Part shown: positions 18,251 through 27,174 of the stretch, piece after piece
Position numbering within the stretch: the first letter of the stretch is position 1
Layout: each line of letters begins with the position of its first letter
Assembly (NCBI GenBank): GCA_963695505.1
Contig: CAVOGX010000012.1
Location: 120,768 to 184,767, forward strand
DNA length: 64,000 nucleotides
DNA from: an uncultured Chloroflexia bacterium
GTDB lineage: Bacteria; Chloroflexota; Anaerolineae; Promineifilales; Promineifilaceae
Direction of reading: 5' to 3'
Made by a program: the position numbers and the translations under genes
The notes under the pieces: generated by a model
The model's database searches: none
What the model was told of the DNA's origin: nothing
Seen by the model: the letters and a program-made list of their open reading frames with translations, nothing else

Positions 18251-19948
18251 CTATAATTCTGCTGGCAGCCACACCTGCACAAAAACCCCGTTCCCTGAAT
18301 CGCTGCGGGCGGAGACCGTGCCTTTATGTATGTGCACAATGCCCTGCACCAGCGTTAAACCTAAACCAATACCCAGTTTTCCACCATGCACAGCCCCGCT
18401 GCCACTGTAAAAACTATCAAACACGTGGGGCAGTTCTTCATCAGCAATACCGGCTCCCGTATCTTGCACTGTCAACCCTACCTGTTGTTGTTCCACATCC
18501 AGAAGGGTGCGCACGCGAATAGCCCCTGAAGCAGTAAAGGAAACCGCATTATCGAGCAAAAGGCCTAACATCTCCACCAACTGCTGCCAGTCCCCCCGCA
18601 CCAGAGGCAGATCGGGCACCAGCGTGATGTCTAACTGTAGCCCCAGGGCAGTCGCCCGCTGCCGGTACATATTCACGGCCGCCACAACAACGCTGTTTAA
18701 ATCGACCAGAGAGATGTCTAGCGGGGACTTCATCAGGTCCGTTTGCGCCAGGCGGACTAATCCTTCGGCCAGCTTTACCAGGTGCTGCGTTTGGTCCCGC
18801 AGCACTTCCAGGTATTGGGCCTGTTTTTCAGGATTAGCCCGCTCCCACAAATCCAGGTAGAGGGCTAGGTTGGTCACCGGGTTGAGCATTTCCTGGGTCA
18901 TACTATCCATCAACTCTGACTTAAATTGACCTAATGCCTGCAACCGTCCATATGCTTCAGTCAGTGCCCTGGTTTGTTCCACAACCCGCTGCTCTTCGTC
19001 AAGAACCTGTTCTTGCAAGCGGGCATGTTCGATGGCAACGGCAGCCTGCCGGGTGAAAATCATGGCAATGTCTGCTTCAGCCTGGCCATATTGATGGGGT
19101 TTGCCAGAACTCAGGTTCAATAAGCCGACAATTTCTGCCTGGATGATCAGCGGAATACCCATCCAGCAGCAAATTTGGCTGGTTTTGGGTAATGTTTGCC
19201 AACGGGGATCGTTGGCCGTATCGCCAACAATGACCGGCGCACGGGAACTAAAAACCCGTTGAATGTGGGGGAATTTTTCCAGCGGAAGCCGGGTGCCTTT
19301 GCGGCCACCAGCATGGAGACTGCGTTGGGCAACGCTTTGTAAATTGTCTCCCTGTAAAAGCATGATGGATGCACTATCGTAGGGCAATACGCGGGACAAT
19401 TGGTCGAGAATTTGCTCCAATACATCGTCGCGCCGCAGGCTTTTGTTAATGGCTTGAATAATGAGACCAAGGGTTTCGACCAGGGTGCGCTGCTGGCGTT
19501 CTGTCTTTGACAGCCGGGTGCGATATTGTTCGGCCTGAACCTGCTCGCGGGCAATTTGGTCTAGTTTATCCTGCAAATGCTGCCCATGTTCCACCACTTC
19601 TTTCAGGCGCAGTTGAATGCGGGTACGAACCAGGAGTTCTGACTGGTTAAAGGGTTTGCATAAATAATCGTCGGCGCCGGCTGTCAGTGCGCGGCTGCCG
19701 GACTGATGATCGGGTACCAGGGCAATGATGGGCACGTGTTGGGCCAGGAAGGTGGTCAGGGTGGCATTAATCTGGTGGGGGGCCAGGCTGAGTATGAACA
19801 GGTCAATGTCGGGGGGTAGGGGTGTGGCGCTGCCGGGAGAAACGGCCGTTACGCGGTAGCCATGGGATTGCAAGGTGGCCGTAACCACCATTTGCATGGC
19901 AAGTTCCTCGTCAACCAGCACCACGTGTGCGCTCATATCTTTGTCCAT
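18251..19948 (-). CDS. Hybrid sensor: receiver (REC) + GAF + HisKA + HATPase histidine kinase
   Basis: REC-like N-terminus VVLVDEE..., a GAF region and the HATPase G-boxes DTGAGI...GLGLTLV. The start is probably ATG 19948 (MDKDMSAH). Confidence 0.85.
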   Translation of the reverse strand: MDKDMSAHVVLVDEELAMQMVVTATLQSHGYRVTAVSPGSATPLPPDIDLFILSLAPHQINATLTTFLAQHVPIIALVPDHQSGSRALTAGADDYLCKPFNQSELLVRTRIQLRLKEVVEHGQHLQDKLDQIAREQVQAEQYRTRLSKTERQQRTLVETLGLIIQAINKSLRRDDVLEQILDQLSRVLPYDSASIMLLQGDNLQSVAQRSLHAGGRKGTRLPLEKFPHIQRVFSSRAPVIVGDTANDPRWQTLPKTSQICCWMGIPLIIQAEIVGLLNLSSGKPHQYGQAEADIAMIFTRQAAVAIEHARLQEQVLDEEQRVVEQTRALTEAYGRLQALGQFKSELMDSMTQEMLNPVTNLALYLDLWERANPEKQAQYLEVLRDQTQHLVKLAEGLVRLAQTDLMKSPLDISLVDLNSVVVAAVNMYRQRATALGLQLDITLVPDLPLVRGDWQQLVEMLGLLLDNAVSFTASGAIRVRTLLDVEQQQVGLTVQDTGAGIADEELPHVFDSFYSGSGAVHGGKLGIGLGLTLVQGIVHIHKGTVSARSDSGNGVFVQVWLPAEL

Positions 19949-19970
19949 ATCTGCTAGAATTTTCCCGCCA

Positions 19971-22205
19971 TCAGGCTGGGGGCAGCCACACCTCAAAGGT
20001 AGAGCCGTCGTCAACGACGCTCTCGAACTCAATTTTTCCTTGGTGCAGCTCTACAATTTCGCGCACGATAGCCAGCCCCAGACCCGTTCCGGGTTTGGAA
20101 AGCTGCCCGGTGCGCTCGCCACGATAAAAACGGTCAAAGAGGAACGGCCGTTCATGGTCCAAAATCCCCATGCCGGTGTCTTTAACCGTCAGCAGAACCA
20201 TCTCTTGCTCTTCGTCCCAGGTCGTCGTCACCCAGATTCCCCCTTTGGCCGTGTAGTTAATGGCGTTAACCAACAAATTCGTCACTACCTGCTCAATTTG
20301 CGTTTTATGCCCCAAAACCGGGGGTAATTCTGGCGCTGTTTCACATTCCAGATGCAAACTGGCAGCCTGGGCCTGGGGGCGATATTGCTGCACCACCTGC
20401 AGCACCACTTGATTGAAATTCAGCGCGCTAAAGGAAACGGCCGTTTTCTCCTGCTCCAGCTTGGAGAGGCTCAAAATATCAGCTATCAGCGTGCCCAAGC
20501 GGTCCGCCTGGCTGCGCACCACCTGAATGTATCTCTCCCGCTTTTCACCAGACACCTGCTGCATTAAATCCAGGTACAGCTTTAAACTGGTGACCGGTGT
20601 GCGCAGCTCGTGGGTGACATCAGACACAAACTTTGATTTCAGGCGGTCCAGCTCTTGCAAGCGCGTATTTGCCAGGGCCAATTCTTGGGTGCGCTCAGAG
20701 ACGCGCTGCTCCAACTCCGCTGCATAAGCGCGCTGCTGAGCATACAACCGCGCATTTTCGATGGCAATGGCCGCCTGCCCGGCAAACGTGGTGGCCATTT
20801 GGGCGTCTACCGCGCCATAAAACCCTGGCTCTGTGTGGTTTAAGTTTAGAATACCCACAATGCGGTCCTGGATCATCATGGGTACGCCCATCCAGCAGCG
20901 AATGAGGTTGGTTTCTGGCGCTTGCTGCCATCGGGCATCAACGGCCGTATCCGCGATAATCAATGGTTGGAACATCTCCAACATTTGCTGAATATGCATC
21001 AAATCATTGACCGGTAGTTCCATGGCCTGTTCCACTTGCGGATTCAGGGAACGAAACGCCACGCTTTGCAGTACGTCTTCTTGCAGCAGCATAATCGAGG
21101 CACTGTCATAAGCCACCACGCGCTGCAACTGCTCCAAAATCAAGACTAAAACCTGTTCGCGATCCAGACTGCTGTTCAGCGCCCCAGCCACTTCGCGCAG
21201 CGTCTCCGCCAATTCCCGCTGCTTGCGTTCCTCTGCCAACAGGCGCGTTCTAGCCATAGCCAGCGAAATTTGCCCTGTGGCCTGCTCCGCGCGAGAGATC
21301 TCATCCGCCGAAAAAGTATGTAACTCAGAAAACGTGATGATTACTGCCCCCAATTTTTGCTCGCCCACGGCCAGGGGCAGCGCCAGCAACGAACGGGCTG
21401 GCAAAATTTGTAGGAGGCGTCGACTAACATAAGCTGAGTTTTCAGCGTCGGACACAACCAAAACGCGCCCTGTTTCCACTACCGTAGACGTCACCGTAAA
21501 ATCATTTTTGGCAGAAACCAGAGTGCGATACAGTTTGTGCATCCCCTCGTGCGCTGCAGCCGGGAAAGCGCGCTTTGCTGCGGCATTCCACATGGAAATA
21601 TAGACGCCATCTGCCCGCAGCAGCTTTTTCAACAAATTAGCCTGCGTATGCAGCATTTGCTCATCGTCAAGGATAGTGGCGGCGGCGTAAGTGATCTGGT
21701 TGAGTTGATCCAGGTATTTTTGCTTTTCTTCCCGTTCACGGCGGACGGCGGCTTCGGCAATTTCCCGCCGCACAGCACCTACCAGGCGCACAATGTCATT
21801 TTTGACGACGTAATCATGCGCGCCAGCCTGCATAGCCGCCAAAGCACCCTTTTCACCAATGTCATCGGAAACGATAATCAAAGGAATGTCATAACCGCGT
21901 TCCTGCAGCACGTTGAGGGCGGCCAGTGCGCTAAACCGGGCCAATACGTGGTCAGCCAGAATGAGGTGCCAATCTTCTTCCTCAAGCGCCAGAATCAGAC
22001 CCGGGGCATCAACTACCTGGCGGTACTGTGGCTTGTACCCGCTCTGCCGCAAAGTACCCAGTATCAACTGCAAATCCTCCTCATTGTCTTCGACTATGAG
22101 GAGGCGAATTTGCCCGGGAGAGGAATACGTAAATCTGCCTGTGTCTGTCATTGTGGTGCTTTGGTTTTTAAACGCTGAGGCATTCGCCACCTTATACCGC
22201 AGCAT
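19971..22205 (-). CDS. Hybrid sensor: REC + 2x GAF + HisKA + HATPase histidine kinase
   Basis: LLIVEDNEEDL receiver, H-box FVSDVTHELRTPV, and DTGMGI..GTGLGLAIV. Alternative start at 22151. Confidence 0.85.
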   Translation of the reverse strand: MLRYKVANASAFKNQSTTMTDTGRFTYSSPGQIRLLIVEDNEEDLQLILGTLRQSGYKPQYRQVVDAPGLILALEEEDWHLILADHVLARFSALAALNVLQERGYDIPLIIVSDDIGEKGALAAMQAGAHDYVVKNDIVRLVGAVRREIAEAAVRREREEKQKYLDQLNQITYAAATILDDEQMLHTQANLLKKLLRADGVYISMWNAAAKRAFPAAAHEGMHKLYRTLVSAKNDFTVTSTVVETGRVLVVSDAENSAYVSRRLLQILPARSLLALPLAVGEQKLGAVIITFSELHTFSADEISRAEQATGQISLAMARTRLLAEERKQRELAETLREVAGALNSSLDREQVLVLILEQLQRVVAYDSASIMLLQEDVLQSVAFRSLNPQVEQAMELPVNDLMHIQQMLEMFQPLIIADTAVDARWQQAPETNLIRCWMGVPMMIQDRIVGILNLNHTEPGFYGAVDAQMATTFAGQAAIAIENARLYAQQRAYAAELEQRVSERTQELALANTRLQELDRLKSKFVSDVTHELRTPVTSLKLYLDLMQQVSGEKRERYIQVVRSQADRLGTLIADILSLSKLEQEKTAVSFSALNFNQVVLQVVQQYRPQAQAASLHLECETAPELPPVLGHKTQIEQVVTNLLVNAINYTAKGGIWVTTTWDEEQEMVLLTVKDTGMGILDHERPFLFDRFYRGERTGQLSKPGTGLGLAIVREIVELHQGKIEFESVVDDGSTFEVWLPPA

Positions 22206-22292
22206 GGCTCATCATATCATATTTTGAGAGCGCGGTAGTAAGAGGAGGTAGAAGTTTGGTTGAGTTGGAAGAAACGGCCGTTTTCCTTGAAT

Positions 22293-24035
22293 TTAATTCC
22301 GCCGCAAAAAGTCTACCAGCTCCGCGAGCGCCACCAGATGACGTTCCGCAGCGCTGCGCCGCTTCACCTCCACGCCCCCCTGGTCCAGATTGCGCGTGCT
22401 CACCGTGATGCGCCAGGGCACACCCATCAAATCCGCATCCTTAAACTTAACGCCGGCGCTGGCTTCCCGGTCATCGTACAGCACCTCAAAGCCCGCCTGC
22501 TGCAGGCTGGCATAGAGGGATTCGGCCGTTTCCAGAACTTGCTCACCCTTTCCCACATGCAGCAAGTGCACCTGGTAAGGAGCTACGCTGTCCGGCCAAA
22601 TGATGCCGTCCGCATCGTGGTGCTTTTCCACAATGATGGCCATCAACCGGTCCAGGCCAATGCCATAAGAGCCCATGAAAATATGCTGCGGCTGGCCCAT
22701 TTCATCTAGATAAGTGGCCTCAACAGCCTTGCTGTACCGCGTGCCCAGCTTGAAACAATGACCCGCCTCAATAGCCCGCTGGGCAGCCAACCGCCCACCA
22801 CAGTGCACACACTGATGGCCCGTATCAGCCTGGGCCACGTCTGCTATCTGGCTCACGGCAAAATCGCGGGGGTAGTTCGTCCCGGTGAAATGGAAGCCCA
22901 CCTCGTTGGCCCCCACCACAAAATTACCGCCGGTCGTAATGGATTCATCGGCCAGAACGAACACGCCCCCAGCCTCCTGGCCTGCCGTTACCAGCAACCC
23001 GGCGGGGGAAGCGTAGCCGGGCACGGCTCCCGCCGCCACGATTTCTTCGTCGGTGGCAGAACGCAGCAGGCCGCCACCCAGAGCGTTTATCAGCTTGACT
23101 TCGTTGATTTCCAGATCGCCGCGCACCAGACCAAACAGGAAACGGCCGTTGTCCACCGCCCCCTTTGCCAATTCACTTTCTGGCGTCCACCAGTAAAAGA
23201 CGGCTTTTAGCGTCTGGCTGGTAGGCACGCCTACAAAAGCGGCCACATCCGCAATGGTCTTGCAGTCCGGCGTGGCGACTTTGGTCAAATCTGCCAGCAC
23301 CTCAGGCGCATTGCCCTCTCGCACGAAAACGGCCGCTTCCACATTGGCCGCATAATCACAGCGCGTACAGGCAATGAAGGTATCCTCGCCATTTTCGTGC
23401 GGCACCATAAACTCGTGCGAACTTTTGCCGCCCATGGCCCCCACGTCGGCATGAACGGCCGTAGCCGGCGTGCCTACCCGCGTAAAAATATTGTGATACG
23501 CCTGCAGCATAGAAGGATAATACGCATCTAAAGCCGCTTCGCCGGTATCCAACGTGTAGGCATCCTTCATCACAAACTCCCGCAAACGCAGCAGCCCGCC
23601 TCGCGCGCGGGGTTCGTCGCGGAACTTTTTGCTGATGTGGTACACCATGCGCGGCAGGTCACGGTAGCTTTCTATTTCGCGCAGGGCCAGGTCTACCACC
23701 ACTTCTTCATGGGTGGCCGAGAGAGCATACTCGCGGCTGCCCCCGGCGGCTACTTTCATGAGGACGTCCACGGTATGCCAGCGCCCGGTGGCCTGCCACA
23801 GCGCCGCCGGATGCAAGTTGGGCATCCACATTTCCTGGCCGCCAATGGCGTCCATCTCCTCGGCCAAAATGTGCCAGATTTTGCGCATGACGCGGTAGCC
23901 CAGGGGCATGAAGGTGTATATGCCGGCCCCCGCCGGGCGCACAAAGTTGGCGCGAATGAGCAGTTGGTGGCTGATCATTTCGGCGTCTGCCGGGGCTTCA
24001 CGCAGGGTTTTGCCAAAAGCTTGTGAAAGTCGCAT
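22293..24035 (-). CDS. proS: Prolyl-tRNA synthetase, bacterial type with INS editing domain
   Basis: MRLSQAFGKTLREAPADAE...FMPLGYRV... class II motifs, about 580 aa with the inserted editing domain. SD GAGGAGGA lies before ATG 24035. Confidence 0.9.
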   Translation of the reverse strand: MRLSQAFGKTLREAPADAEMISHQLLIRANFVRPAGAGIYTFMPLGYRVMRKIWHILAEEMDAIGGQEMWMPNLHPAALWQATGRWHTVDVLMKVAAGGSREYALSATHEEVVVDLALREIESYRDLPRMVYHISKKFRDEPRARGGLLRLREFVMKDAYTLDTGEAALDAYYPSMLQAYHNIFTRVGTPATAVHADVGAMGGKSSHEFMVPHENGEDTFIACTRCDYAANVEAAVFVREGNAPEVLADLTKVATPDCKTIADVAAFVGVPTSQTLKAVFYWWTPESELAKGAVDNGRFLFGLVRGDLEINEVKLINALGGGLLRSATDEEIVAAGAVPGYASPAGLLVTAGQEAGGVFVLADESITTGGNFVVGANEVGFHFTGTNYPRDFAVSQIADVAQADTGHQCVHCGGRLAAQRAIEAGHCFKLGTRYSKAVEATYLDEMGQPQHIFMGSYGIGLDRLMAIIVEKHHDADGIIWPDSVAPYQVHLLHVGKGEQVLETAESLYASLQQAGFEVLYDDREASAGVKFKDADLMGVPWRITVSTRNLDQGGVEVKRRSAAERHLVALAELVDFLRRN

Positions 24036-24053
24036 TACATCCTCCTCAAGTAC

Positions 24054-24081
24054 AAAAAAGGGCAGGTGATGGCCTGCCCTT
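24054..24081 (-). terminator. Intrinsic terminator between the two proS genes
   Basis: On the minus strand: AAGGGCAGG-ccatca-CCTGCCCTT followed by TTTTTGT. It lies 32 nt after the upstream proS stop and ends 18 nt before the downstream ATG. Confidence 0.65.
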
Positions 24082-24112
24082 GCACACATTCAACGGTTGT
24101 TGTCTGTAAAGT

Positions 24113-25555
24113 TCAATAAGCACGGCCGAATATGGCGATTTTGCTAGCAGGTCGCCCGGTATAGAAGCAGGTGCCGCCGTTCTCTGGCTGCTCCAGGGGG
24201 AAGCAGCGAATGGTGGCTTTGGTTTCTTCTTTTACCTTTAGCTCTTCGGCATTGTCGCCTGCCCACCAAACGCGGGCAAAACCGGTCTGCACGGCCGTTT
24301 TGAAATCCTCATAATTCGACACGTCGTGGGTGTTTTCGTCGCGGAATTGGTTGGCGCGGGCCAGCAAGTTGGCCTGAATCTCCGCCAACAGGGCTTGCAC
24401 GGTGACCGCCAGGCCATCTTGCGAAACAAACTGCTTGCCCTCGCGGCCTGGGATGTCACGGCGGGCCAGGGCCACGCTGTGCTTTTCAATATCGCGGGGG
24501 CCAATTTCAATGCGTGCAGGCACGCCCCGCAGTTCCCAATCGTTGAATTTGTAGCCGGGGGTCAGGTTGTCGCGGTCGTCCATCTTTACCCGCACGCCCA
24601 CGTCTACCAGCTCTTGCTGAATGCGGTGGGCAGCTTCCAGAACGGCCGTTTTCTCGGCGTCTTTGCGGTAAATGGGCACAATCACCACCTGGTAGGGCGC
24701 CAGGCGGGGTGGCAGCACCAACCCACTGTCGTCGCCATGAGTCATGATGATGGCTCCCACAAAGCGCGTGCTCAGGCCCCAAGACGTCGTCCAAGCGTAT
24801 TGCAGCTCGTTGTTGGGGTCCAGGTATTGAATGTCGAAAGCTTTGGCAAAGTTCTGTCCCAAATTGTGGGAAGTGCCCGACTGCAGCGCCTTGCCATCTC
24901 CCATCATTGCTTCAATGGTCAGGGTCTGGTTAGCCCCGGCAAAGCGCTCCAACTCCGATTTTTCACCACGCAAAACAGGAACGGCCGCTTCGTTGATGGC
25001 AAAGTCCGCGTACACGTCGAGCATCATCCGCGTGCGCTCGTCGGCTTCCGCTTTCGTGGCGTGGGCGGTGTGCCCCTCTTGCCAGTAAAATTCCAGCGTG
25101 CGCAAAAACAGCTTGGTGCGCAGTTCCCAGCGCACCACGCTGTTCCACAGGTTAATCAGAATGGGCAAATCGCGGTAGCTCTGCACCCAGTTGGCGTAAG
25201 CGTGCCCAATGATGGTCTCCGAGGTGGGGCGCACCACAATGGGCTCGGCCAGTTCCTGCCCGCCGCCGTGGGTGACCACCGCCAGCTCAGGCGCAAATCC
25301 CTCTACGTGCTTGGCCTCTTTCTGCAAAAAGCTCATGGGGATAAACATGGGGAACCCGGCATTTTGCACGCCGGTAGCCTTAAACCGCTGGTCTAGCGCT
25401 TGCTGGATATTCTCCCACAAAGCCCACCCGTAAGGTTTAACAATCATGGTGCCGCGCACCGGGCCATAATCGGCCATGTCCGCCCGCAGCACTACGGAGT
25501 TGTACCATTCGTTGAAGTCTTCGCTGCGTGAGACAAGTCTGTCTTTATCCGCCAT
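24113..25555 (-). CDS. proS: Prolyl-tRNA synthetase, archaeal/eukaryote-like type (no INS domain, C-terminal Zn-binding-type domain)
   Basis: 480 aa. FNEWYNSVVLRADMADY..VRGTMIVKPYG, and C-terminus CFPLEQ...CFYTGRPA..IFGRAY. Confidence 0.9.
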   Translation of the reverse strand: MADKDRLVSRSEDFNEWYNSVVLRADMADYGPVRGTMIVKPYGWALWENIQQALDQRFKATGVQNAGFPMFIPMSFLQKEAKHVEGFAPELAVVTHGGGQELAEPIVVRPTSETIIGHAYANWVQSYRDLPILINLWNSVVRWELRTKLFLRTLEFYWQEGHTAHATKAEADERTRMMLDVYADFAINEAAVPVLRGEKSELERFAGANQTLTIEAMMGDGKALQSGTSHNLGQNFAKAFDIQYLDPNNELQYAWTTSWGLSTRFVGAIIMTHGDDSGLVLPPRLAPYQVVIVPIYRKDAEKTAVLEAAHRIQQELVDVGVRVKMDDRDNLTPGYKFNDWELRGVPARIEIGPRDIEKHSVALARRDIPGREGKQFVSQDGLAVTVQALLAEIQANLLARANQFRDENTHDVSNYEDFKTAVQTGFARVWWAGDNAEELKVKEETKATIRCFPLEQPENGGTCFYTGRPASKIAIFGRAY

Positions 25556-25785
25556 TCAAATACCTTTACATCACTGTTTTTTTGCAAGCTGCAAAACGAA
25601 GGAGAGTATAACAGTCATCAAATTACCCGTCAAAAGGGGCCGGTTCTGGGTGAATTTTGGGCTGTTGGGGCACAAATTGCTTGCCTCTCAGAGGAGTTTG
25701 CTCTAAGATGTGGTGACTCTAGAGAGAAAAATCGACTTGTCGGTTTTTGTGAGAGGAAATCTTTTTCTAAAAAGGAAGGTAAACA

Positions 25786-25980
25786 ATGGCATTTAGTTTT
25801 ACAAATTCAAAAGGACGTACTTACTTTTTGCACAAGCGTGACACGCAGTTGAAGAACGGCCGTTCCCAAACCATTTACTTCTTTGCCAAAGAGGTGAAGC
25901 CTGGGGCAATTGACGCCGTGCCAGCCGGGTACGCTGTGTCTGAAAGCCGCAATGGCCTGCCTGTTCTAAAGAAGAAATAA
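25786..25980 (+). CDS. Small conserved-looking hypothetical protein (64 aa)
   Basis: AAGGAAGG SD before the ATG, followed by a clean terminator. Confidence 0.55.
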   Translation: MAFSFTNSKGRTYFLHKRDTQLKNGRSQTIYFFAKEVKPGAIDAVPAGYAVSESRNGLPVLKKK

Positions 25981-26005
25981 ACAGGCGCCACCAGCAAAAT
26001 AAGCG

Positions 26006-26040
26006 AAAAAAGCCTCTTGCCACAGCTTGAGGCTTTTTTG
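26006..26040 (+). terminator. Rho-independent terminator
   Basis: AAGCCTC-ttgccacagctt-GAGGCTT followed by TTTTTG. Confidence 0.75.
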
Positions 26041-26052
26041 TTAGGCAGGCGG

Positions 26053-27174
26053 TTTGTGCCCTACTTCAATTATCAACTGGTTACGGCCGTTTCTCCCTGG
26101 CAGCGCCGCGAATTTCTGCATCATTGGTGGCGCATCTACCAGTCTGACCACCGCTGGACGCCACCCGTTTACGCCCATCTGCGCTGGGCCACCAACCCGC
26201 TGCTGAATCCCCACCTGGCCCGGCTCCAGCCCCAATTTCTGCATGTAGAAGCCCTGCACCGCCAGCAGCAAGGCATGCCTCATACTGGACGTATCCCTCT
26301 GAACGCATCTTTGACCGAAACGCCCCTGGCCGCAGGCATTCTGCTGCACGATCCGCGCCGGGCTGACAGGGCTGCCCACCTGGCTCTGGTACACTGCGCC
26401 AATGAGGCGGAGGCTTTTGAAACGTTGCTCTATGCCAGCGCCGAACGCCTGACCGCCGCGGGGATAAGGCGGTTGGTAGCTTTCACCGGTTTGTCTCCTC
26501 ATTTAGGCAGCGGTCTTCTTACCAATGAATGGCATCATGATCCCCCATGGCATACGCCCTACAACCCACCCTACCTGCCAGAGCTAGTAGAAAAGTGGTT
26601 GCACCCTTTAACCACAGGGAGCTTGTACCACCTGCCTGTACCCGCAGAACTGTCTCCAGTTTCTCAGCCGGCAACATTACGTCCCCTGGATGCAAATCGG
26701 CTGGCGCAAGATTTGCTGCCGCTGCTGGAAACGGCCGTTTCCACCCCCCATTTTCCCCCGCCAGACCAGGCCGAGGCCGCTTTTTTGCTGCGCTGGCTCG
26801 ATCCGCGCACCCTTCGAGGCTGGCTGGCCGAAATCCAAGGACGGCCCGTTGGCTTCCTGCTGCTGCAGCCTGACCTGGGGCCGCGTCTGCGCCAGACCCG
26901 GGGAAAGCCAAAATGGCTGCAGCAAATTTGGCTCAAGTCCCCTCTACGCCCTGTGCGCCAGGGACGGCTGCTTTTGGGGGGCGTATTGCCTGCCTACCGC
27001 CGCCAGGGCATCGGACGGCAGCTTTTAAGCAAGGCGATGGTCGCCGCGCAGGAGCAGGGGTGGCAAAAATTGGTGATAGGGCCAGTGTGGCAGGGGGAAA
27101 CGGCCGTCAAATTCCTCCTAAATCTGCAAGCCAAACCCTCCCAAACTTTTCGGTTATATGATTGGAACTTCTAA
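26053..27174 (+). CDS. GNAT-domain protein (acetyltransferase domain at the C-terminus)
   Basis: LGGVLPAYRRQGIGRQLLSKAMVAAQEQGW acetyl-CoA motif. The ORF-track start (TTG 26017) sits in the terminator loop, so GTG 26053 or a later codon is more likely. Confidence 0.55.
   Translation, partial: FVPYFNYQLVTAVSPWQRREFLHHWWRIYQSDHRWTPPVYAHLRWATNPLLNPHLARLQPQFLHVEALHRQQQGMPHTGRIPLNASLTETPLAAGILLHDPRRADRAAHLALVHCANEAEAFETLLYASAERLTAAGIRRLVAFTGLSPHLGSGLLTNEWHHDPPWHTPYNPPYLPELVEKWLHPLTTGSLYHLPVPAELSPVSQPATLRPLDANRLAQDLLPLLETAVSTPHFPPPDQAEAAFLLRWLDPRTLRGWLAEIQGRPVGFLLLQPDLGPRLRQTRGKPKWLQQIWLKSPLRPVRQGRLLLGGVLPAYRRQGIGRQLLSKAMVAAQEQGWQKLVIGPVWQGETAVKFLLNLQAKPSQTFRLYDWNF

Follow-up and report, generated by a model that had tools for sequence, protein, structure and literature searches.

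A tandem of E-type and P-type prolyl-tRNA synthetase genes in an uncultured Anaerolineae bacterium

The minus strand of a 64,000-nucleotide stretch of contig CAVOGX010000012.1 (assembly GCA_963695505.1), referred to here in its full length as the window, carries two genes for prolyl-tRNA synthetases (ProRS) of different architecture, arranged head to tail. The source is a metagenome-assembled genome (MAG) of a member of the Anaerolineae (Chloroflexota), comprising 5.01 Mb in 23 contigs and 84.8% complete. The first of the two long open reading frames (ORFs), proS-I, encodes an E-type ProRS, and the second, proS-II, which follows 77 nt downstream, encodes a P-type ProRS; the corresponding genes of other genomes are called type I and type II. 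The pairing of the two types is common in the class, and the tandem has been passed down in the family to which the window's genome belongs. We tentatively read the locus, at somewhat less than an even chance, as an operon-like tandem of two working ProRS isozymes that would serve one pool of bacterial-type tRNAPro. The features of the locus, in window coordinates, are as follows.

24113..25555, minus strand: proS-I, E-type (archaeal/eukaryote-like) ProRS, 480 aa, no INS domain (TIGR00408, alignment to 1H4Q)
24116..24313, minus strand: ProRS-C_1 domain of proS-I, residues 415-480, with the terminal Tyr (PF09180, 73.7 bits)
22293..24035, minus strand: proS-II, P-type (bacterial) ProRS with INS domain, ~580 aa, ORF to 24089 (NF006625, alignment to 5UCM)
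22875..23273, minus strand: INS (tRNA_edit) editing domain within proS-II, ORF residues 273-405 (PF04073, 60.1 bits)
24036..24112, minus strand: 77-nt spacer with a terminator-like hairpin at 24058-24081, a T-run, and then the Shine-Dalgarno sequence GAGGAGG of proS-II (sequence scan and folding)
25605..25633, minus strand: promoter-like site 5' of proS-I, TTGACG, 17 nt, TATACT, with TG before the second hexamer (consensus match, 10/12)
23142..24649, no strand: four copies of ACGGCCGT, starting at 23142 and 23455 (proS-II) and at 24291 and 24642 (proS-I) (sequence scan)

Gene structure and predicted activities

The ORF of proS-II spans 22293..24089 on the minus strand (598 aa). Because family models align only from residue 19 (MRLSQAF) and the ATG of that residue, at 24035, is preceded by GAGGAGG, we take the protein to be ~580 aa long and the spacer to be 77 nt rather than 23 nt. 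A search of the whole genome with the family models of both types retrieved one full match per type and no more. A preliminary description of this DNA had proposed two differently built ProRS on the same strand, the E-type gene directly upstream of the P-type gene, and the ORFs, family scores, and domains bear this out.

The product of proS-I scores 557.9 bits against TIGR00408 (proS_fam_I), above the cutoff of 437. It contains the Pfam domains tRNA-synt_2b, HGTP_anticodon, and ProRS-C_1, and the Pfam search gave no match to tRNA_edit (PF04073). The protein aligns end to end with the Thermus thermophilus ProRS (1H4Q; 609.8 bits), and motifs 2 and 3 are intact, with the stretches VVRWELRTKLFLRTLEFYWQEGH and TTSWGLSTRFVGAIIMTHGDD matching up with 1H4Q. 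The motif 2 loop reads LRTK in proS-I versus MRTR in Thermus, and the C-terminal extension ends in GRAY, with the conserved tyrosine as the last residue. Of the four cysteines in the C-terminal domain of the Thermus enzyme, which we take to bind zinc there, proS-I retains only one in the same alignment. Judged by score, lack of INS, terminal tyrosine, and motifs 2 and 3, proS-I is a complete E-type ProRS gene, and prolyl-tRNA synthesis is predicted for its product.

The product of proS-II scores 659.6 bits against NF006625 (cutoff, 558) and 565.4 bits against TIGR00409 (cutoff, 306.7), and it aligns over its full length with the Pseudomonas aeruginosa ProRS (5UCM; 434.7 bits). The tRNA_edit (INS) domain interrupts the class II core of this protein between motifs 2 and 3. 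Motifs of type II were checked in an alignment of 32 class sequences (that of the window and 31 others). The INS motifs TLK, GAVPGYASPAG, and GANEVGFH, conserved across the class, are all kept in proS-II, as are all charging-site motifs (THEE, the motif 2 arginines, GGKSSHEF, FKLGT, and GSYGIG). Indeed, the synthetic-site pattern of proS-II is that of copies from genomes without a detected type I gene (G007, G014, G023, and G019), with conservative changes only. The family scores, INS motifs, and synthetic-site motifs thus place proS-II as a P-type ProRS predicted to be functional at both sites. The preliminary description had named a dead paralogue as the outcome that would speak against it; motifs aligned with 1H4Q, 5UCM, and the class sequences indicate that neither copy is dead.

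Two tRNAPro genes were detected (CGG and GGG). Their acceptor stems are identical, both with C1:G72 and A73, which is the bacterial type; the existence of two tRNAPro classes is thus ruled out for both detected genes. ProRS types read the acceptor stem differently in other organisms (PMC11229370), so that each enzyme might charge its own subset of tRNAPro isoacceptors. Such a division is extremely improbable here, given the shared stems of the CGG and GGG genes; the UGG isoacceptor was not found in the 84.8%-complete assembly.

The promoter-like site 5' of proS-I is the sole minus-strand promoter-like site in 21800-26300 (4.5 kb scanned). In the spacer, the hairpin at 24058-24081 has a folding energy of -24.5 kcal/mol (z, -2.0) and is followed by the T-run. 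It also occurs in the congeners G002 and G004, with a weaker T-run in G004, and is absent from the other tandem relatives. An Rfam scan of 21800-26300 found no T-box or other leader RNA and gave one chance-level miRNA match (E, 0.22). Among the tandem relatives, the distance between the two genes varies from an overlap of 1 nt (G011) through 11 nt (L043) to 302 nt. The overlap and the 11-nt gap imply cotranscription in G011 and L043, and cotranscription is likely in several relatives; in the window, proS-II is probably reached by attenuated read-through. Two relatives (L044:5441-5592 and L048:5441-5745) have in the spacer between the proS genes an ORF of ~40 codons for a hydrophobic peptide ending in LLLYG[ML]FFKKR[EQ].

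Directly 3' of proS-II, after an 87-nt gap, two consecutive hybrid genes (receiver, GAF, HisKA, and HATPase) lie on the same strand (window positions 18251-22205).

Distribution and history of the pairing

In a sample of 25 genomes of the window's family, 17 carry both types, 5 type II only, and 3 type I only, two of the last group being doubtful (one genome is 70% complete, and in another the gene lies at the edge of a contig). Of the 17 with both types, 9 have them in tandem, and these tandems span at least five genera (g1, g7, g14, g17, and g20). The class sample comprised 251 genomes (250 at ≥90% completeness plus the window's genome). Type I was found in 185 of these genomes and type II in 163 of them, with 100 carrying both, 85 type I only, 63 type II only, and 3 neither. 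Among 90 genomes from other classes of the phylum, 16 have both types, 33 type I only, and 41 type II only, the last group including one unpublished genome (G302). As a control, the same search matched Thermus to type I, and not to type II, above the cutoff.

Linkage extends beyond the family. At least 9 of the 68 class genomes with full-score matches to both types have the two genes on the same strand and ≤1.5 kb apart, with the type I position not displayed for 10 of the 68. These pairs come from the window's family and six other families and occur in both gene orders; the eight besides that of the window were confirmed on fetched sequence. One further I-to-II tandem was found in another class of the phylum (G306). 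Among named loci, the tandem is present in 7 of 10 at ≥79% identity to the window's type I protein and in 0 of 70 below 79%.

According to the preliminary description, a single ProRS type is the rule in most bacteria, and the Introduction of PMC11229370 says the same. A pairing both common and already characterized throughout the phylum was the other outcome that, in that description, would speak against it. The first half applies (100/251 genomes in the class and 16/90 in the rest of the phylum), and the second does not, as far as the literature search extended: no paper on dual ProRS in Chloroflexota was found, most subscription journals being outside its reach.

Each type also occurs without the other in close relatives. 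No ProRS other than the window's type II lineage was found in G007, G014, and G023, and none other than type I in G020 (2 contigs, 93% complete). Because each is the sole ProRS found in some relatives, each lineage can probably sustain translation alone. Other copy numbers were also seen. G009 gave two matches to type II, none to type I, and may hold both type II lineages of the family. In the class sample, G151 has two full-score type I matches (C108 and C356) and one type II match. Three genomes of another class of the phylum (G320, G328, and G360) have two full-length type II matches each (~1e-165 to 1e-170) and no type I match, that is, a P-type plus P-type duplication.

Quick maximum-likelihood trees place each gene of the window in a family-wide clade. 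In the type I tree, 14 family sequences form one clade (support, 99*), whose nearest neighbors are one Armatimonadota sequence and an Acidobacteriota-dominated group, with unstarred support. The family type II genes split into two lineages. The first is a long-stemmed clade (support, 100*) with all tandem copies and the copies from three genomes without a detected type I gene; the second groups with a sister family in the same order. A single family clade of type II was rejected by an AU test (log-likelihood difference, 132.75; p, 8.6e-5), which was run after the tree had been seen and with the group set by taxonomy. The two lineages (L137, L139, L141, L145, and L189 versus L120-L126) are ~49% identical. 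The 19 family type II sequences compared gave one lineage per genome. The family thus holds three ProRS lineages (type I and two of type II), of which each genome keeps one or two. Given that the family type II genes do not group together, the lineage to which proS-II belongs may have been imported long ago and come to rest behind proS-I; it is not a recent arrival.

Host signatures are present in both genes. The octamer palindrome ACGGCCGT occurs 6108 times in the 5.01 Mb (~1.2 per kb) versus ~106 copies expected from base composition. The window holds 90 copies (at positions such as 20144, 22274, and 25856), two of them inside each proS gene. ACGGCCGT behaves as a highly iterated palindrome, distinct from cyanobacterial HIP1. 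HIP1 itself (GCGATCGC) was rejected as the host palindrome, with 0 copies in the window; another sequence, AACGGCCGTT, has 2768 copies in the genome. The preliminary description was therefore right that both copies carry the host palindrome, which is ACGGCCGT. Its view that neither gene was recently imported is likewise supported by the palindromes, the similar GC3 of the two proS genes (0.717 and 0.697), the family-wide clade of each gene, and a within-genus branching order that is identical in the type I and type II trees.

These observations bear on the possibility of resistance, in which one of the two enzymes would withstand a natural ProRS inhibitor produced by the organism itself or by neighbors, as in the case of IleRS2 and mupirocin. 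Natural compounds directed at ProRS exist (febrifugine, cispentacin, and phosmidosine), and sensitivity to halofuginone differs ~100-fold between P-type and E-type enzymes (PMC11229370); resistant aminoacyl-tRNA synthetase paralogues are a known pattern (PMC5388404, PMC9437257). No biosynthetic cluster is present, however, among the 19 ORFs at 11090-38388, which include kinases, GNAT, DinB, and phosphate transport. Vertical inheritance in the family, the presence of both types in 40% of the sampled class genomes, and the host signatures in both genes are also unlike a sporadic resistance gene. The inhibitor-resistance reading raised in the preliminary description thus gains nothing from a nearby cluster or from a scattered distribution, and we consider it distinctly unlikely.

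A second alternative is transient redundancy, in which the genome would be midway through replacing one ProRS type by the other, with no specific benefit of either. The class mosaic (85 genomes with type I only, 63 with type II only, and 100 with both) is what such turnover could produce, as are the three ProRS lineages in the family. A further point in its favor is the type I gene of G013 (L135, C1, 1007-2448), which reads in three frames (residues 1-263, 260-313, and 315-480). This gene is followed, after 3.1 kb, by an intact type II gene and is either decaying or affected by indel errors in a 7-contig assembly. Selection estimates speak against turnover. Across five genomes of the genus (10 pairs per gene), omega was 0.033 to 0.072 for type I and 0.069 to 0.126 for type II, values that are rough at a dS of 0.73 to 2.08, near or beyond saturation. 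The dN of type II was 1.4 to 3.3 times that of type I in these pairs. On these estimates, both proS genes are under purifying selection, with omega ≤0.13 for both in all 10 pairs. The tandem also persists across at least five family genera, over which neutral redundancy should have decayed. We thus regard transient redundancy as quite unlikely.

A proposed role of proofreading in the retention of the P-type enzyme

A clue to what retains the P-type copy comes from relatives in which it appears to have been reduced. In the class sample, 33 genomes have only a weak type II match, and 32 of these also have type I. Of 18 weak type II genes that were fetched, 16 have eroded charging motifs and intact INS motifs, and the other two are normal genes. 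The 16 relics (L200-L215) are full-length type II genes, all from genomes with type I:

L200-L215: G056, G277, G080, G200, G169, G175, G250, G240, G052, G100, G157, G259, G170, G220, G071, G275

Erosion patterns vary by family; in the f42 group, segments around GGxxSHEF and FKLGT are missing as well. The window's own proS-II is ruled out as such an editing-only relic, as every synthetic motif is intact.

The INS domain edits Ala-tRNAPro by way of the anticodon recognition of the synthetase, and ProXp-ala carries out Ala-tRNAPro editing where ProRS lacks INS (PMC3973320). Besides proS-II, the window's genome (G000) has four free-standing editing genes of the INS superfamily:

C10:75817-76293
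C21:428035-428532
C14:238636-239109
C13:35555-36031

By rough subfamily, one of their products is YbaK-like, one is like Thermus TTHA1699, one is like Aeropyrum APE2540, and one is remote. The preliminary description had suggested a check of relatives for YbaK or ProXp factors. In the window's own genome, all four proteins fall below the YbaK equivalog cutoff (TIGR00011), and there is no ProXp-ala candidate among them, as none matched a solved ProXp-ala at E ≤ 1e-5. A spot check of five other family genomes counted two such genes in G020 (type I only), three and two in G019 and G007 (type II only), and five each in G016 and G011 (both types). Genomes with both types, the window's included, thus have four to five.

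We favor the view that proofreading is what preserves the P-type copy, because the charging site is eroded and INS is kept in 16 relatives, because INS edits Ala-tRNAPro, and because no ProXp-ala candidate was found. Together, these points suggest, without proof, that proofreading maintains the P-type copy beside the E-type enzyme. The relatives with an editing-only P-type copy thus lend indirect support to the preliminary suggestion of different editing needs, which that description had listed, with no choice made, next to inhibitor resistance and stress-specific isoforms.

Within the tandem of two working isozymes, the division of labor would be as follows. Transcription would begin upstream of proS-I, and the hairpin and T-run before proS-II would probably lower read-through and not stop it. 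The E-type enzyme, the slower changing of the two, would act as the main charging enzyme; it has no domain for the removal of Ala-tRNAPro. The P-type enzyme would be retained mostly for its INS domain, which, guided by the anticodon-binding domain of the same protein, would clear Ala-tRNAPro; it would also supply backup charging. No observation suggests a heterodimer of the two enzymes.

Several points weigh against this reading. Type I alone was found in 85 of the 251 class genomes, so that an INS-bearing ProRS is dispensable in the class. The window's P-type enzyme keeps a full charging site that appears to be under selection, which would make it more than a proofreader. Free-standing editing genes show no pattern of compensation where only type I is found (five family genomes, one of them with type I only). 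Both the promoter and the terminator are no more than matches to a consensus, and only the closest congeners share the hairpin; the near-saturated dS leaves the omega values approximate. In addition, the benefit proposed in the sole studied precedent, Bacillus thuringiensis, is stress tolerance and not editing (PMC11229370).

That precedent underlies a third alternative, namely that the two proteins are stress isozymes with a shared tRNAPro substrate, of which one (probably the E-type enzyme) would go on working under heat, oxidative, or reducing stress, and that both would be retained for this reason. In B. thuringiensis, BtProRS1 (P-type) and BtProRS2 (E-type) are both constitutive and both charge P-type tRNAPro, and BtProRS2 better tolerates heat, H2O2, and dithiothreitol (DTT) (PMC11229370). 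The window has the same combination of two enzyme types and P-type tRNAPro only. Sequence, however, says nothing on stability, and the tandem, probably cotranscribed layout leaves little room for stress-specific regulation. Stress tolerance would also leave unexplained the loss of the charging site, with INS kept, in P-type partners elsewhere in the class. We consider stress isozymes unlikely, if still a serious candidate.

Proofreading as the activity that retains the P-type copy can be extended to a Chloroflexota-wide two-enzyme proline module. In such a module, the E-type enzyme would charge tRNAPro and the P-type enzyme would be kept chiefly as a tRNAPro-targeted proofreader; the window's tandem would represent the intact bifunctional state, the relics would be the end state, and the linkage in seven other families would reflect selected coexpression. 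This broader proposal is speculative, and we hold it to be somewhat unlikely.

Relation to known systems and significance

By analogy, the window pair appears to be a dual E-type and P-type ProRS system of the kind known from B. thuringiensis, with both types present and bacterial-type tRNAPro only in the two detected genes. As in the window, the B. thuringiensis pair combines a P-type enzyme with INS (BtProRS1) and an E-type enzyme ending in Tyr (BtProRS2), with bacterial-type tRNAPro only (G72 and A73) (PMC11229370). The motif 2 loops of the E-type enzymes, LRTK in the window, TTR in B. thuringiensis, and RTR in Thermus, are unlike the eukaryotic FKHPQ, and an RTR loop goes with those E-type enzymes whose specificity is for tRNAPro of the bacterial type; an E-type ProRS is said to be present in ~22% of bacteria (PMC11229370). 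The genes of the window are in tandem and probably cotranscribed, and the host, unlike B. thuringiensis, is an uncultured member of the Anaerolineae.

The ProRS of T. thermophilus (1H4Q), another bacterial representative of the E-type, shares its domain order and terminal Tyr with the product of proS-I. It differs in its four C-terminal-domain cysteines, of which the window's enzyme keeps only one, and in that Thermus has no type II match above the cutoff. The editing-only ProRS-II relics share with the window the phylum, an E-type partner, a full-length P-type gene, and conserved INS motifs. In contrast, the relics have lost THEE, the motif 2 arginines, GGKSSHEF, FKLGT, and GSYGIG, all of which the window's P-type enzyme keeps. 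Resistance-type duplicates (IleRS2/mupirocin and SerRS2/albomycin; PMC9437257) likewise give a genome a second synthetase for the same amino acid; unlike these, the window pair has no linked biosynthetic cluster, shows vertical inheritance, and occurs widely in the class. New in the present case are the tandem layout, the high frequency of the pairing in Anaerolineae, and its connection with the editing-only relics.

In practical terms, the findings are of modest value: they allow better annotation of dual ProRS in Chloroflexota MAGs, in which two proS genes are no sign of contamination. The sole studied case of a bacterium that retains two ProRS, B. thuringiensis, pointed to stress tolerance. 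With both enzymes predicted to be intact and the tRNAPro genes known, the window pair is a good starting point for biochemistry. The class itself forms a natural series, from genomes in which both genes are intact and linked, through those in which the P-type enzyme appears reduced to an editor, to those in which only one type is found, and this series could reveal which activity selection retains.

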